64,000 nt of DNA from Vicugna vicugna (GCA_013265495.1 MU057701.1:682001-746000); one strand, 5' to 3'. Shown: positions 17,466 through 55,582, numbered from the stretch's first letter. The notes: a model not told the origin generated them from the letters alone. Made by a program: numbers and translations.

Positions 17466-17561
17466 ATTTTTGACAATGAAGCCAAAGACCTGGAGAGAGA
17501 AGTTTGCTTTATCGATATTGCCTGCGATGAAATTCCAGAACGTTACTACAAAGAATCTGAG
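17466..17561 (+). CDS. PITPNC1: PITPNC1 internal coding exon (96 nt, ~residues 123-154; exon 6 by human numbering)
   Basis: Flanked by tttcAG and GTGAGC. Translates to IFDNEAKDLEREVCFIDIACDEIPERYYKESE, which matches the RdgB-beta PITP domain. Consensus branch point CACTAAC at 17432-17438. Phase 0/0. Confidence 0.97.
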
Positions 17562-39650: not shown

Positions 39651-39734
39651 CCTTCTTCACTTATGTCATATAAATGATGGTTGAATTTTTAAGTTATCCT
39701 TTTCTCTCATATATATATATTTTTTTTCCCCCAG

Positions 39735-39890
39735 GATCCTAAGCACTTCAAATCTGAGAAGACAGGACGGGGACAGTTAAGGGAAGGCTGGAGAGACAGT
39801 CATCAGCCCATCATGTGTTCCTACAAGCTGGTGACGGTGAAATTTGAGGTCTGGGGGCTTCAGACCAGAGTGGAACAATTTGTACACAAG
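39735..39890 (+). CDS. PITPNC1: PITPNC1 internal coding exon (156 nt, ~residues 155-206; exon 7)
   Basis: ccccAG acceptor and GTAAGT donor. Translates to [52 protein letters not shown], containing the PITP-family motifs KTGRG and MCSYK. Confidence 0.98.
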
Positions 39891-42680
39891 GTAAGTGAAT
39901 GGACGGCAGTTCCTGGACTGTGGACAAAGTGACTCTATGATGTAAACTGGAGCGTCCGATGCCCAACAGGTGTACAAGTGCTGAGTCAACACGAGGTCCC
40001 TGCATCTAGAAAACCCTGTTTTCATGAAAATGCATTTTGCCTACAGTTTAATGTTCTTCCACTAACAGATACTTGACACTTCATCTCTCATTATGTGACC
40101 TCCATGTCTATTGGGTGAGTATGTTCAGGAAGTTGGACTTTCAAAATATACTCCCTCTCTGACATCAGGCTAATCTAGTTCCAGGTAGAGGTACTTGGGG
40201 TCTGGGGTTCCAGGCAGAGGCACCCAAGGAGAGTTCTCACTCAACAGATCGTGCAGATATAGACAACTGAGGTAGAAGATGCCCCAAGAGACAGAACAAG
40301 AAATCCCAGTGGTCCCTTTTGGTGGTGCACCTCAGCCGTTCTGCTCAGTTAATAATTCTGCTACCAAAGAACTATTAATAATCTCAAAACACAGATTTCA
40401 ACTGTATACCTACTTTGAACATGTTAATTTTGTAGCAGGAACCCACTTGGTGATGATTGAAGTTTGTTAGGGGCCTTCTAACATGACTCTCATCCTTATG
40501 GAAATTAATGGGAAATGCAGTGTTAAACATTGTCCTTTGTAACTCCTATTTTCATTAAAAAAAAAAAAATACTACCCAAGTTGTCTCTCCATTCCAGACA
40601 GGCTGAATATCTGCTTATTTTTCCACTTTAAAAAAAAAAGAAAGACTGATAAAGAGCAGCTTTCTGAAATTCCTTTCAGGGCACTGGTATTTAACCTTAA
40701 TGCACTGAGTTTTTTGTTACTTGGATGAATTTGTCTACTGAGATTGGGGGGAGCCAATTGATAATAAAATCTGTAAATCTGGAATTTAGGTCCAAGGGAT
40801 AGATCGAACTTGGGCTCCTGATAATAACAGACCCTGGAGCAAATCTGAGACAGAGGAGTGTCCTGATCTTCTGCTGAGCTCCAGAATCCATTCTGCCCAG
40901 CCCAAGGTGGAAGCCAGGTGGGACCCATGGAAATCAAGTTTTGGTACCTCCCGTTCTCCTGCTATGTCCCAGTTATCAAGCAGGAAGACAGTCGGGGCTC
41001 CCAGAGTAAATATTTTCCAGCCTCCCTTCTGTCTCTCTCAGGCTGTGTATTCTCATCCTCCTACAACATCCCACATTTTTTTTTTAAACCCCAAATGATC
41101 TCCTCTTACTAGGGCACTACCACGGTAATGTTTTATTATTTCCTCTTCTCACAGAGCATACTGAGATGGCCACAGGGCTCATTGTCTTTTTTTTTTTTCC
41201 TCTCACAGATGACTTTGGTTAGTTTTGAGGATCTATTTCTTCAAAACACTTGTAAGAATTACAGTCTAGTAATAGGCATTCTCAGTGCCCATTTCCAAAT
41301 ATAATGAAGTGCTATCAACACCCCAAAAACACACCTGCTCCGGCACATGAGCCGCTAATGAGGATATGAAGCTAGCATTTGCATCAGTTTTAAGTGCCAG
41401 GGATGCCTTTCCCTGAACACCTTTGTTCTTTAAGAATCTATTCACAGTTAAGGGGAAAGAATATTCAAAAGCGAGCCATTAGCACATTATTGAATTCTTG
41501 TTTCAAGCAGACAGCTGTGTTATTCGTAACGCAATAGGGTATATTTGCTGATGCCTCGACGCTGTTCTTTTGACTTCCCTGAATTTGACACACTCAGCAC
41601 TCAAGTGCATATGGCTTCATGTTGTTTCTTATTTTCATTACATGTTTCCTCCTTCTGAATCATAAAAGCCTCACTAGATATCCAGAGGCCTAGAGTAATA
41701 AACACTTCATTATGAAAGCTTCCCTTGTCTCCACAAATTCACCGAATTAAAAATCCTTCATTTATTGAAACATGCTTGAAACTTTCCACAAGAGGTTTTT
41801 GACAATTGCTGGATTTGTTTGGCAGGAAGAATGGAATGTTGGAGGGAGAGTGTGAGTATCCAAGAAATGTAAAAAGGCATATTTATAGAAGAAAAAAAAA
41901 TACCACGAAATAAAAGCACATAAGTAGTGTTACGCACACTATTTGTTCTCCTTGGTCTTCTATTGCCATTATGTGTCACTGTAAGAAACAATCCCATTCC
42001 TTTTGTCTCCAGTCAGGCTTATCATTCCCATTATGTTCTGCTCTCCTTCTGGCCTCCTATTTCATCTCTTTCAATAATAGTAGACTAAACTGCTTTTTTC
42101 CCCTCACTTCTATTACATGAAAGTCAAACCTAGATAAATTTACTACTTACTTATCTTGTATCCCACACCTTCAGTTATATATATTTTTAAAAAACCCAAT
42201 ATTTAGGATATTTCATTAGGGAAGAGTGTTAAGTGCTTTTGGCTTAGAAGTGATTTGCTACCCAGACAAGTGTTCTTGATTTCCACCATTTATGACCTCC
42301 TGGCACCAGTGAGACTCACCCTTCTGCAAATGAAAAGTAGAACCTGTTTTAGGTAAAGATCAATGAAGAGAAAAATCTCAAGGTGATTAGCCCTAGAGAT
42401 TCATTCCAGTCACTGCTGAGTGACTGCCAAGTCATTGTCATTAGTTTGAAAAACCTCCAGCTCAACTTTCAAATAAGATGAAGAGATTAATTTACAGCAA
42501 GGATATGCCCACCATGGAAAGAGCTGAGTAAGTATATCACCCTGTAGTTGTCATCACACATGGACAGAGGGATGGAGAAATTTGTAATTGTCAGAATTCC
42601 TAGTATTGGGAACCACCAATTTTCCAGATAGTTTTAATCAAACATAGTATTCTGTCAACCGCCTTCTTTTGCTTTTTTAG

Positions 42681-42744
42681 GTGGTCCGAGATATTCTCCT
42701 GATTGGACATAGACAGGCTTTTGCATGGGTTGATGAGTGGTATG
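42681..42744 (+). CDS. PITPNC1: PITPNC1 internal coding exon (64 nt, ~residues 207-227; exon 8)
   Basis: ttttAG acceptor and GTAAGT donor. Translates to VVRDILLIGHRQAFAWVDEWY plus one base (phase 1), containing the PITP HRQ..W.D.W motif. Confidence 0.98.
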
Positions 42745-50687: not shown

Positions 50688-51411
50688 GATTAAGAAACCA
50701 TTATTCTGAAATACCAAAAAAATCACAGGCTCAGACCAAAAATCGTAATGTCACCTGCCATTTTATTTATAGACCAGTGGAGGTGGGAGTAGTGCCAGCC
50801 ATCTTCCAGCTGTTAGGCTAGACTTGAAGTTCAGTGTAGACCTGCACTCTTGGACACCATGTATTCTGTGCAAAAGTACATCTTGGTGTGAGCATTGCAC
50901 CAAACCTCAGCGGTGCCAGTGAATGTCATTTCTCTGCCTTCTATGTCCTGTCTCTTATAATAGCAATGAAAGTGTCCTTTCTGTTGTTGAATGCATTGGT
51001 TTAAAGAAGCGCCAAATCTATTTTGAAAGGTATATGAAAGGTAAGTATTTAACCACACAAACCTGACCCCGTCCCTCAAAAGGATCTTCTAACTATGCTC
51101 TTAGGAGATCTCGGGCTACGGCACCCTCCATGTGCTAATACTTTCTCCCACCGAGCTCACTTTACAAGAATCATCCCTAAATAATCTCCACTCTTCTCCG
51201 TTCTGACTATTTTGACTTAACTTCCTTGTACTGACTCCCCCTTTGGCTGGTTTAGCTAACTTTATGATTGACTCTTCATAAAGTTAGTGAATCCCCTGCT
51301 TTTTACACCTCTCCTTGGCTTCTGCTAAGCTACCATCATTCCCTAAAGTCTTCCCCATTGAAAAGTTCGCCTTTAATAATGGAAGTTGCCAACGTCTTGA
51401 CCTTCTTTCAG

Positions 51412-51530
51412 ATATGACAATGGATGATGTTCGGGAATACGAGAAAAACATGCATGAACAAACCAACATAAAAGTTTGCAATCAGCATTCCTCCACTGTG
51501 GATGACATAGAGAGCCAGGCCCAAACAAGT
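51412..51530 (+). CDS. PITPNC1: PITPNC1 alternative cassette exon (119 nt) of the short 268-aa isoform (sp2)
   Basis: tttcAG acceptor and GTATGT donor. With the G from exon 8 it reads DMTMDDVREYEKNMHEQTNIKVCNQHSSTVDDIESQAQTS. Splicing to 55266 adds ACA TGA (Thr, stop), giving the known short-isoform C-terminus ...AQTST. Confidence 0.93.
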
Positions 51531-53396
51531 GTATGTAGAATTTTTAAAACATGTTGCCCACCCTTTACCGAACGTACACCTAAACTGATCTTTGAAATGA
51601 CTTCACACGCTCAATTCTCAAACTTGCACAAAAAAAGTGTCGTCGCCCAAAGGCTGTCTGTGAAGAACAGGAGCGGGTCTCAGTTGGACAGCGTTGCCTC
51701 TTGCTTCCAGACATTTCCATTCTTTTAAGCTGCTTGAATTGGGGGTTTTTTTGGTCGTAAAACCAAGAACACAGAGAGTGGAAACAATTTGTGGCCTGCA
51801 CCACAAGAGAACAGAGGGGTAAAAACAGATGTCATACAAAAGCTAGACCATCAATGCCAGTAACTTTTAAAGACATAGTTAACAGTCAGTTATTCATCTA
51901 AGGGAGGTCTTCGGGCTCATCTGGTATTTTAGGTTTCTTTACATTTGCTTTGAAATGCTTTCTACGGCTCTTTAAGGCTGTTTTACCCAAACAGTTCCTT
52001 TCTACTTGGGTTCGTGTCAAGATGGGGCTGCCGTCTATGCATACACACTGGCTAAGCAGGGAAGGAGTAGTGACCAAGGACCATTCTAGATCTAGCCTGG
52101 GACTTAGATAAGCCCCAGAGAGCCTGAGGTTATTGAATGCATGTTGGTGATTGAGAGCTGACTATATGGTGTATGCCAGCATCTTCAATATAGTTCTATC
52201 TCAATCATTCATGCTGGTGAAGGGGAGTTACAGATAATAAAGAAAATGTGATCACTAAGTCTTTTACATGTATCTTTGGCCAGAGCTGTGATCTCTTTGG
52301 GTGCCAGCTTGCGCATGCCTGTTAGCCTCAGAATAATACACGGTGAGGTACTTAAGAAATTGACAGTGTGGTTATAGAAAATTGAGAGATGGCTATTACT
52401 GTCAATACTTTCAATTTGTGAAGACCTTTGATTGCACTTTGGAAATTTCTAGTTAACTTTTAAGAGCATGTCTTTGGAATGTGCCCTGTGAAGGCTCATG
52501 CACTGCCACTGGATGCATGCGACTGTCCTTGAGGTTGAAATGGCCCTAACTCTTCCTCCCCAATCTGCATGCAGTGATTGGATTTGCAGAAAGCTGTTTG
52601 GACCAGGCTTAACTGAGGTGTTCCTCTGTAGGCACAGACCATTTCAACAGGACTTCCCCTTTCCTCTCTCCCTTTTCTAAAGATAGAAATGCTCATTTAA
52701 GAAACTGTCCTTGAATTTCCATCACTTTCAGTTACCTTTTCTTTAGGAATGTCAGACACCAGTCCCCCCTCAGCCGCTCTCTGAAAGCCGCTCACTATAA
52801 GGATAAGCGTGGCCAGACCGAGGAAGCCAGAGGAAAGGGGAAGACACCCAGAGGATATCCACAGTGCTTTCCTCATTCTGAGTTCTCCCGGCTTACAGCT
52901 GAAGACCGGTTTTCTTTCCGTTTTACTACGGTTGCTATTAGGAAGTCAGTTTACTATGTAGAAGGTGATGCCTGCAATGGTTCCCCCCATGGGAAAGCCC
53001 ATGCATTCTCTGCCTGCAGGCCAGTCCTTCCCATGACTTCTGTGTTAGAAGTTACACAAAGTGGTTATCTTTAAATATTTGCCACATTTCCCTTATTCTT
53101 TGGAATTCTGTCAAATTGGGGGTCGTTTATTTTTCCATATTTTTCTTCTCTGTCATAATGAAAAAGTTGAAATCAAGAGGCTGCTGTCCATCACAGATAA
53201 AAACTGCATGGGTGCTCAATAAGTTTGAATCATCGGCCTGAGTAGAGACAAACTGGATTGAAATTAGGCAAAATCAACATCCATGACCATGGCAATAGGG
53301 AAATAATGGTCTCCTTTTCAATACTTTCAAGGAAGGGAACTTCTAAGAAGACTCTGAAGGCAGTGTAAAATCAAAATTCTGTACTTTGGATGATTT

Positions 53397-53427
53397 CTGC
53401 CCCCTGCTGGATATGTGGTGTAGAGCA
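53397..53427 (-). promoter_or_regulatory. CTCF binding motif with upstream (zinc finger 9-11) module
   Basis: The minus strand reads TGCTCTACACCACATAT-CCAGCAGGGGGCAG. The core fits CCASYAGRKGGCRS exactly, and a TGC-initiated module starts 17 nt upstream of the core. Confidence 0.65.
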
Positions 53428-54142
53428 CTATACTCAGCCACATACAGAAAACCTGATTTTTCAAAGATGATATCCATTTATGATAGCAGAAATATACTGC
53501 TGAAATTCCTAGAGGTTTTTCTGAGTCTCAATTTTATTTTGAAATAACTTTAAAAAATTTAGTTGCATTTCTTAGGTGGTTTAATAGCCTTAGTATTTTG
53601 TTTAAATGGTTAGTCTCCAGGTAACAAATTTTTCTTGCTGTATCCTGAATTTTATATTCTGTCAACACAGTCATAATTTTTTATTTCCTTGTAAATACTT
53701 TTCTCTTTCAGAAAATTTTAATAGTTGACCCCAGGAAATCCTCTTAAGGATTTTGTTTTTTGAACAACATTTCTGGTTGGTTCATATGTTACCATATGAC
53801 TGTATGTGATTAATACCATGTTATGAATATTCACTCCATAGTTAATATTTCCAAAGCAGCTGTATTGTTTCATGCTAGCTTATGCAGTATCATCTAGTGA
53901 AGGTTTCACCTACTAAGTTCACGGGAGAGGGCGAGAATGAAAAATGGGTCTCTGGGAAGCTAAAACAGACGTAGAGATCCCTAGGCAGCGGATTTCACCT
54001 TTTTCTCAAGGACAAGCTTGTAGGCCTTCACTCAGTACTTTTTCTGATAAGCCCAGTTACCCATTTTCCCTGTTACCAGTAATACAATTGGCAAAGGATA
54101 CCAGGGATATTCCAGCCTGAGAGGGATTAATAATAACCTTAA

Positions 54143-54186
<44 letters not shown>

Positions 54187-54199
54187 ATAGTAGTAATAG
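54143..54199 (+). repeat. (TAG)14 microsatellite with degenerate TAA/TAG tail
   Basis: 14 perfect TAG units at 54143-54184. Confidence 0.97.
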
Positions 54200-55265
54200 A
54201 GTTCCTGAGAATGAGAGAAGAGATATAAAACTATATAAAGCAAATTGGCCCTAAGAAAGAGGTCATCACTGTACTGTAACACAGTGTTATACTTTCAGCC
54301 TATTATGTGTTAAAGATAATAAGTGTATATAGTACATTATTTAATGTATTTACATTAGGGAGAGATTCACATTTAATGAGTTTCGGTTTTTTGTTTTTGT
54401 TTTACTTTCTCACGTAATAAGAACATTTCAGGTATTTAGAAAATCTACATCATCTGACAATGCCTGTTAAATGAATTTATTTCTGAAGTGCCAAATAATG
54501 CTCCTTTTTTCTTTTAAGTAAAATTCTCACCCATTAAGCCATCCTCTCTTTTTGTTCTCTACTCTTTTTCTCTTTATGTTTACGTGAGAAATGGTTTTCT
54601 TGGTTTGGGGATAATTAGCAGAATTTGTTGTTGTCATATCTTACCTGTTTTTTAAGATGAAGTGCTTAAAACACAGCATCTAAAATCTTGGGATGGATAC
54701 ACAGCCAGGAAACAAGTAACCCCTAGAACGCAAAAAGTATGTTTATTGAGTAAGAGCATAGTGTGTTGAGAAATTCTGATCTGCCTGTTTGCCCTATAAA
54801 GATATGCTTGTATTTTCATGATCTAAAGTAGGTAATAATATGTATCATCTTTGAGCCATTGATTGCTTTAATTACCTTCCCTTTATAGAAAGGATGGCCA
54901 GGCCTAATAATAGCTCCACGTCACCGCACCTTACCTACAACACACAGGCGCACATACACACACAGCTTTGCTGTGGCTCCCTACCCCCTCATAAGTTCTT
55001 ATTCAGAATACTTAAAATACTCACTGAAGAGTGCTTTGGAAAATCTTGGATGGATATTCATACAGGAGTATCTTTTCAGAGGTTTGCCTCAGTAAAAAGA
55101 TAATTCAGGGTTTAGCATTTCAATGACAATTTGGGTTTATAATCTGGAGACGCCCTTTGATCGTAGGGTTCTGATAGGTCCTTTAAAAACAGGAAGAAAG
55201 AGGTGAATCCCTTGGCTTCTCTTCTAAATACCCTCTCATTTTTCTTTCTATTTTTTTCCTCTAAG

Positions 55266-55582
55266 ACATGACAATGGATGAAGTCCGAGAATTTGAACGA
55301 GCCACTCAGGAAGCCACCAACAAGAAAATTGGCGTTTTCCCACCTGCCATTTCTATCTCCAGCACCCCGCTGCTGCCTTCTTCAGTCCGCAGTGCCCCTT
55401 CCAGTGCTCCATCCACACCTCTGTCCACAGATGCACCAGAATTCCTGTCAGTTCCCAAAGATCGGCCCCGGAAGAAGTCCGCCCCAGAAACTCTTACACT
55501 CCCAGACCCTGAGAAAAAAGCCACCCTGAATTTACCTGGCATACACTCTTCAGATAAGCCATGTCGGCCCAAATCAGAGTAA
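55266..55582 (+). CDS. PITPNC1: PITPNC1 terminal exon coding part, long 332-aa isoform (sp1) with Ser/Pro-rich PEST tail and 14-3-3 sites (S274 codon 55403-55405, S299 codon 55478-55480)
   Basis: A long polypyrimidine tract ends in ctaAG. G+AC encodes Asp228, followed by ORF 55268-55582 MTMDEVREFERATQEATNKK...RPRKKSAP...KPCRPKSE*. Confidence 0.97.

Follow-up and report, generated by a model that had tools for sequence, protein, structure and literature searches.

The 119 nucleotides at 51412-51530 are best explained as a conserved cassette exon that supplies the ending of the short form (sp2) of PITPNC1, and the DNA downstream as the intron flank of a regulated exon together with a neutral open reading frame that would be exposed when the intron is retained; we give this reading a probability of about 0.85. 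Positions refer to the window, that is, the whole stretch of 64,000 nucleotides of Vicugna vicugna DNA that was analysed. An earlier note on the same DNA had proposed that the exon belongs to a duplicated last exon, and that its frame, if read through a weak donor, may yield a third PITPNC1 C-terminus.

Comparison of fetched PITPNC1 proteins with the window by tblastn located the 3' part of the gene on the + strand, with the following exons:

17466-17561, + strand: PITPNC1 exon, from tblastn of PITPNC1 proteins.
39732-39893, + strand: PITPNC1 exon, from the same comparison.
42681-42743, + strand: upstream constitutive exon encoding VVRDILLIGHRQAFAWVDEWY, matched by tblastn with P0037 and P0006 at 100% identity over 21 aa; ends approximate.
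51412-51530, + strand: cassette exon of the short form (sp2), 119 nt, from sequence, translation and protein matches.
55266-55582, + strand: coding part of the terminal exon, encoding the long-form (sp1) tail of 104 aa from MTMDEV.

The splice partner of the exon at 42681-42743 is either 51412 or 55266. The initial AT of the cassette exon completes an Asp codon and is followed by 39 codons that read MTMDDVREYEKNMHEQTNIKVCNQHSSTVDDIESQAQTS; the exon (2 + 117 nt) thereby ends on a codon boundary, and its translation contains the sp2-specific peptide MTMDDVREYEKNMHEQTNIKVCNQHSS... The terminal exon begins ACATGACAATGG. When the cassette exon is included, the terminal exon is read ACA TGA, and translation ends ..QTST at a stop in 55269-55271, giving 268 aa; when it is skipped, the same exon is read (G)AC ATG ACA.. 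and the long tail results. In a protein search that covered the whole cassette exon, identity was 100% to the Ovis and Balaenoptera PITPNC1 models and 95-97% to felid, canid, horse and primate models and many others. The terminal-exon tail shows 92% identity to a rat model over 105 aa (tblastn). The cassette exon and the tail that follows it are present as a single copy in the genome to which the window belongs (2.03 Gb, 12,405 contigs). The hexamer TGCATG, which we take to be an RBFOX-type motif, lies inside the cassette exon at 51451-51456, within the codons of NMHE; since it is fixed by residues M13, H14 and E15, invariant in alignment A1, its conservation alone is no sign of a regulatory role.

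Two PITPNC1 variants are described in passages of PMC8266687 and PMC6092267: sp1 (332/333 aa) and sp2 (268/269 aa), the latter being the RdgB-beta short form. The 14-3-3 sites S274 and S299 and the PEST sequences are assigned there to sp1 only. Among the papers listed on splice variants, intron retention and RdgB-beta exons, titles and opening lines of abstracts mention no third PITPNC1 isoform, which is weak evidence of absence.

The relationship between the two alternative exons was examined within the window. A tblastn match of 22 aa (59% identity, E 1.5e-4) joins the cassette exon to the 5' part of the terminal exon. Among the first 39 residues 13 are identical (ungapped score +44), almost all of them within residues 1-22; a count from the translations gives only 1 identity in 17 for residues 23-39. 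These alignments indicate paralogy between the cassette exon and the 5' part of the terminal exon, limited to the first ~22 codons. The earlier proposal of a whole duplicated last exon thus holds for this initial segment and fails beyond it, where a weak colinear similarity between the tails had been claimed. Every shuffle test of that claim was negative. Ungapped BLOSUM62 comparison of the tails scored -71 against -55 ± 15 in 5000 shuffles (p 0.86), with 2 identities in 65 positions; the Smith-Waterman score was 17 against 21.8 ± 4.1 (p 0.94), and global protein alignment gave p 0.81. At the DNA level, p was 0.57 for global and 0.39 for local alignment, with an ungapped identity of 24.6%. Moreover, the other two frames of the tail DNA outscore the supposed coding frame against the terminal tail (22 and 24 versus 17), and the motif pairs quoted in support of colinearity stand at offsets of 0, 1 and 4 residues, as counted from the translations.

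An electric eel model (isoform X2, P0075) ends ..NIKVCNDQQEHTTSAPPSLGGLGTLDKVST; its exon is longer, and shows the same succession of exon, T and stop (..KVST). Judging from this model, the cassette layout seems older than the divergence of ray-finned fish from tetrapods.

The features that follow the cassette exon are these:

51531-51536, + strand: 5' splice site GTATGT, weak, preceded by AGT, with no G at -1 and with T at +4.
51531-51728, + strand: open frame of 65 codons in the exon's frame, closed by TAA (51726-51728), from translation; read here as intron.
51531-51600, + strand: conserved intron flank, in which placental tails align in frame 0 and bird and turtle tails in frame +1.

The donor AGT/GTATGT at 51530/51531 matches 4/7 consensus positions in a simple count. 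Translation confirmed the 65 codons past the donor that had been reported, and the 104 aa from MTMD to the stop: 51414-51728 is free of stops and reads MTMDDVREYEKNMHEQTNIKVCNQHSSTVDDIESQAQTS followed by VCRIFKTCCPPFTERTPKLIF...FQTFPFF. The terminal-exon ORF (55268-55582) was likewise confirmed to encode 104 aa. Open runs of at least 65 codons start, nonetheless, at 4.8% of the positions of the + strand of the window and at 5.1% of those of the - strand, compared with a mean open run of 20.5 codons in the background. The figure is 3.5% for local positions (49-54 kb), and of the window's 62 GTRWGT sites 8% are followed by such a run. The frequency of runs of exactly 65 codons is 0.2%, a coincidence chosen post hoc. 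Stops in the three frames of 51531-51728 number 8, where equally long window segments have 9.8 (P 0.37). Regional depletion of stop codons was also considered and rejected on comparison with window segments, with P values of 0.37 for the tail, 0.22 for 51531-51860 and 0.06 for 51600-51728. Hence, the 65-codon frame is at chance level and is accidental in this genome. That the terminal-exon ORF is also 104 aa long, which had been taken as meaningful, is a coincidence: orthologous tails run from 2 to 206 aa.

Conservation of the tail was examined in a panel of public protein models, ORFs and gene calls, with species names as the sources give them; for some members of the panel the end may be that of a contig and not a stop. 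With the 104-aa ORF as query, 64 matches were found among longer proteins and 28 among proteins of 57-182 aa, and cluster look-ups added more. The 123 fetched proteins are distributed as follows:

Canonical sp2 ending, one residue past the cassette exon: 49/123 (P0037, P0023 and 47 others).
Donor read through, with an intron-derived tail: 50/123.
Donor read through, then a later donor into the last exon: 3/123.
Other models: 16/123.
Exon motif absent: 5/123.

Read-through models or ORFs are thus found in other species. Of the three results named beforehand as arguments against a third C-terminus, two were obtained here, namely frameshifts in most orthologues and a tail alignment no better than shuffles; the third, absence of read-through transcripts, does not hold for other species. 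The NCBI isoform X models that read through include manatee X2 (XP_023585073.1, 331 aa), pika X2 (XP_040845468.1, 286 aa) and red colobus X2 (XP_023067766.1, 344 aa), the red colobus models spanning 333-356 aa. UniRef models of this kind come from macaque, marmoset, chimpanzee, gibbon, two lemurs, musk deer and opossum and, outside mammals, from duck, pheasant, owl and turtles; a Xenopus laevis X3 model can be added. In P0007, the product of a 1489-nt contig from another species, the exons of the PITP domain are spliced together and the tail is read through; the spliced exons indicate that the source is either processed RNA or a retrocopy. Read-through transcripts probably exist, to judge from these models, and could be translated. 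As to the earlier suggestion of read-through, its first half stands, since predicted isoforms and ORFs continue past the donor in other species; the second does not, as the tail is not maintained as coding sequence.

Three models (P0006, P0008 and P0011, from rat, kittiwake and godwit) continue for 30-63 codons past the donor, use a later donor and enter the last exon in frame. Possession of both endings suggests either that the intron contains several cryptic donors or that the gene models are over-eager. Another GT is found at 51529-51534 (CAA/GTGTAT), two bases upstream of the used donor and with the same 4/7 consensus positions. Its use would give an exon of 117 nt with the frame kept (..AQTN-MTMDEV..) and a protein of 371 aa that carries both endings. 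P0016, an ab initio model from naked mole-rat, has exactly this construction.

The tails of the 50 read-through models and ORFs range from 2 to 206 aa. The stop position, proposed as a check of the coding reading, is scattered: the 28 mammal-type tails have 18 different lengths (19, 43, 46, 48, 49, 50, 55, 64, 65, 67, 74, 78, 89, 90, 99, 114, 116 and 206), the shortest being that of pika, which stops after 19 aa, at codon 20. Frame conservation fares no better among these models and ORFs. Frameshift-aware alignment of 19 of the 28 mammal-type tails required a frameshift relative to frame 0 of the window in 18; the sole colinear tail, that of Prolemur, stops at 50 aa, and sauropsid tails shift within three codons of the donor. 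The closest tails, those of P0098 and musk deer (P0088), follow frame 0 to 51674 (tblastn, E 7e-22 and 1e-18) and then frame 2 over 51611-51724 (E 3e-7 and 5e-7), ending in LLLPDISIL. They too have 65 codons, with a different frame over the last ~17, and the shared length is therefore not a shared protein. P0100 passes from frame 0 to frame 1 (tblastn, E 2e-16), and the distal tails of monkeys and manatee (..ELDLNWAVSPLSSRHFDPLKLL..KPRTWRVET) match frame 1 at 51679-51786, in which the window has a stop. In a rat-like read-through tail, 47 of the 106 aligned residues match, a count that includes 22 conserved exon residues. A search with the tail only (residues 40-104) against 5.8 billion proteins of 183-2000 aa returned no match at E<=1. 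A search for orthologous DNA with a profile of alignment A1 gave pattern matches at 23 stretches in metagenome contigs and 4 in genome contigs, none of them confirmed. Altogether, the alignments indicate that the tail DNA is alignable among orthologues without keeping its frame, and that the tail, with its frameshifting indels and scattered ends, is not maintained as protein.

One group shows a different pattern. Six monkey sequences keep a colinear tail of 89-90 codons, with 6-10 differences in 89 between marmoset and the other monkey sequences; the gibbon tail loses the frame at codon 30. These differences are probably fewer than free drift would produce. Coding or non-coding constraint may lie behind the monkey tail, as both fit the protein-level data.

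The segment next to the donor (51531-51600) behaves otherwise than the rest of the tail. Aligned placental tails stay in frame 0 to at least 51575, and most of them to ~51600, with aligned segments running to 51575-51800; over the first ~12-23 codons they have in common both frame 0 and the motif VCRIFKTCCPPF. Alignment A1 shows V40 without variation and C41, K45 and P50 conserved to at least 90%. Variation is also seen, in the form of C41R in primates, K45E/Q, T46A, C47R/P, P50L/S and F51C. Bird and turtle tails (FLKHIAHPQLIHLH; VCQFLKHIAHPQLIHLH..) match frame +1 of the window (EFLKHVAHPLPNVHLN*) at 51538-51597, with E values of 8e-4 to 2e-3 (tblastn), and are in that frame within three codons of the donor. 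Because the flank can be aligned in birds and turtles in another frame, the nucleotides just after the donor have been kept since the split of mammals and sauropsids and the frame has not, which points to constraint at the nucleotide level. The flank contains the U-rich run AATTTTTAAAA. U-rich elements after weak 5' splice sites can act as TIA1-type enhancers. The segment is probably a splicing-regulatory flank of the alternative exon, and the open frame beside it looks like an ordinary, unconstrained intron ORF.

RNA structure was examined as a candidate feature of the same region and discarded: the fold of 51500-51610 has -10.8 kcal/mol, against -14.9 ± 2.7 in shuffles (z +1.5), and 190 of 200 shuffles fold as well or better. 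Within that minimum-energy fold, which as a whole is no better than shuffles, the donor GUGUAUGU (51529-51536) forms an 8-bp helix with the perfectly complementary ACGUACAC (51572-51579), 36 nt downstream.

Signals for 3' end formation were sought in the intron 51531-55265. One was detected:

52236-52241, + strand: AATAAA, the sole one in the intron, located 508 nt beyond the TAA; no indication of a poly(A) site.

From the density of the window (0.70 per kb), ~2.6 AATAAA would be expected in the intron, and ATTAAA is absent from it. Five sequencing runs recorded as RNA contained a fraction of 0.33-0.41 of the sampled words of 51412-52300, and no conclusion here rests on that figure. A scan of 51000-52600 with Rfam found no family above its gathering score; a mir-9-like match at 51252-51291, in the intron upstream of the cassette exon, reached 24.6 bits against a gathering score of 58.6 (E 0.11) and is probably due to chance. 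A (TAG)19 microsatellite with 92% matches occupies 54143-54199 in the last intron.

Several readings of the tail other than a neutral intron ORF deserve consideration. One is that the cassette exon doubles as a functional alternative terminal exon: read-through combined with intronic polyadenylation would yield a maintained third PITPNC1 of 332 aa, devoid of 14-3-3 sites. The open frame of 65 codons, the read-through models present in many species (50 of the 123 fetched proteins), the 65-codon tails of the musk deer model and of P0098, the closest ORF found, and the presence of one AATAAA 508 nt downstream all speak for it. We nevertheless regard it as extremely improbable: those two tails arrive at 65 codons through a different frame over the last ~17, the frameshifts in 18 of 19 mammalian tails and the spread of lengths from 2 to 206 aa are not those of a maintained protein, the tail-only search was empty at E<=1, AATAAA is under-represented in the intron instead of enriched, and only two variants appear in the portions of PMC8266687 and PMC6092267 mentioned above. 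A related idea is that placentals regularly retain the last intron, downstream of the weak sp2 donor, and translate it, with selection on the Cys-rich start VCRIFKTCCPPF and a remainder that drifts and is tolerated. The selected start may be, for instance, a lipidation or membrane-contact motif. In favor of a coding tail one can invoke the 28 mammal-type tails of 19-206 aa, to be compared with a background of 20.5 codons, with the proviso that the sequences are related and that one search admitted only those of at least 57 aa. The frame 0 and the VCRIFKTCCPPF start shared by placental tails can be invoked as well, as can the six monkey sequences, whose colinear 89-90 codons would be one sign of regular, translated retention if this reading were true. 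On balance we find it very unlikely.

If function is restricted to the first 12-23 residues past the donor (VCRIFKTCCPPF...), these might form a placental-specific Cys-rich extension produced by intron retention, with the rest of the tail as a neutral spacer. The maintenance of frame 0 in aligned placental tails to 51575 or beyond, in most cases to ~51600, and the conservation of V40, C41, K45 and P50 are what such an extension would predict. However, birds and turtles conserve this DNA in a different frame, the residues themselves vary at C41, K45, T46, C47, P50 and F51, and pika stops at codon 20; we see only a slender chance that the extension is functional. Taken together, a functional read-through product of some kind is improbable. 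Lastly, the tail might be the decayed relic of a duplication of the whole last exon, without any coding role at present. The two exons share homology in the acceptor region and over their first ~22 codons, and the cassette layout is old, as the electric eel ending (exon + T, ..KVST) illustrates; yet codons 23-39 (1/17) and the tail retain no residual similarity, and a tail whose frame is unstable even among mammals cannot have kept a signal of that age. We consider the relic proposal unlikely.

The reading that we favor, a regulated sp2 cassette exon followed by its intron flank and a neutral ORF, can be put together as follows. The cassette exon probably originated long ago, when the acceptor and first ~22 codons of the last exon were copied in tandem. 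If it is spliced in, translation ends four bases into the last exon and gives the form of 268 aa. The sequence after the weak donor is the last intron, which by chance lacks stops for 65 codons in the exon's frame. Should that intron remain unspliced, an sp2-like protein of 332 aa with a species-specific junk tail could be made. An mRNA that retains the last intron, with its stop in what becomes the last exon, should escape nonsense-mediated decay; as the intron in question is the last one, its retention would probably give an mRNA that escapes such decay and could be translated. Conservation, which is strongest over the first ~35-70 bases of the intron, probably reflects a regulatory flank, in which the U-rich AATTTTTAAAA and its surroundings would help or restrain the use of the donor.

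The distinction has consequences. If the tail were a maintained third C-terminus, there would be a PITPNC1 form free of 14-3-3 control and of PEST turnover and distinct from sp2, and it would bear on the division of labor between sp1 and sp2 in brain, heart and metastasis. Public annotation already contains equivalent read-through isoforms as predictions. PITPNC1 'isoform X' models of this type, whose tails are long and species-specific, call for caution and are not to be regarded as conserved proteins.

Comparison with the known forms of PITPNC1 helps to place the sequence. With regard to sp2, 51412-51530 encodes its 39 specific residues, and splicing to 55266 gives the sp2 ending; failure to use the donor would replace the final T of sp2 by a tail of 65 aa. 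With regard to sp1, the read-through product would equal its length, 332 aa, and the two alternative endings are paralogues over their first ~22 residues. In contrast, no similarity to the sp1 tail can be detected in the read-through tail, which also lacks the RKKSAP site context (residues 68-73 of the terminal-exon ORF) and is unconserved, whereas the window and rat share 92% identity in the sp1 tail. The read-through isoforms of public annotation share the architecture found here, with a PITP domain, the cassette exon and continuation past the same donor into V[CR]R[ILF]F.. Their tails, all of them computational models, differ in frame, sequence and length (19-90 aa), and none matches the tail of the window beyond ~48 codons. 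A further known form, mouse PITPNC1 'isoform 3' (BAE42401.1, P0069; 234 aa), ends ..WVDEWYGKSDGPK and departs directly after ..WVDEWY. Its sequence leads us to infer that it reads past the preceding donor; it thus differs from the read-through discussed here in its junction, which follows the exon at 42681-42743, and in its tail of 7 residues.
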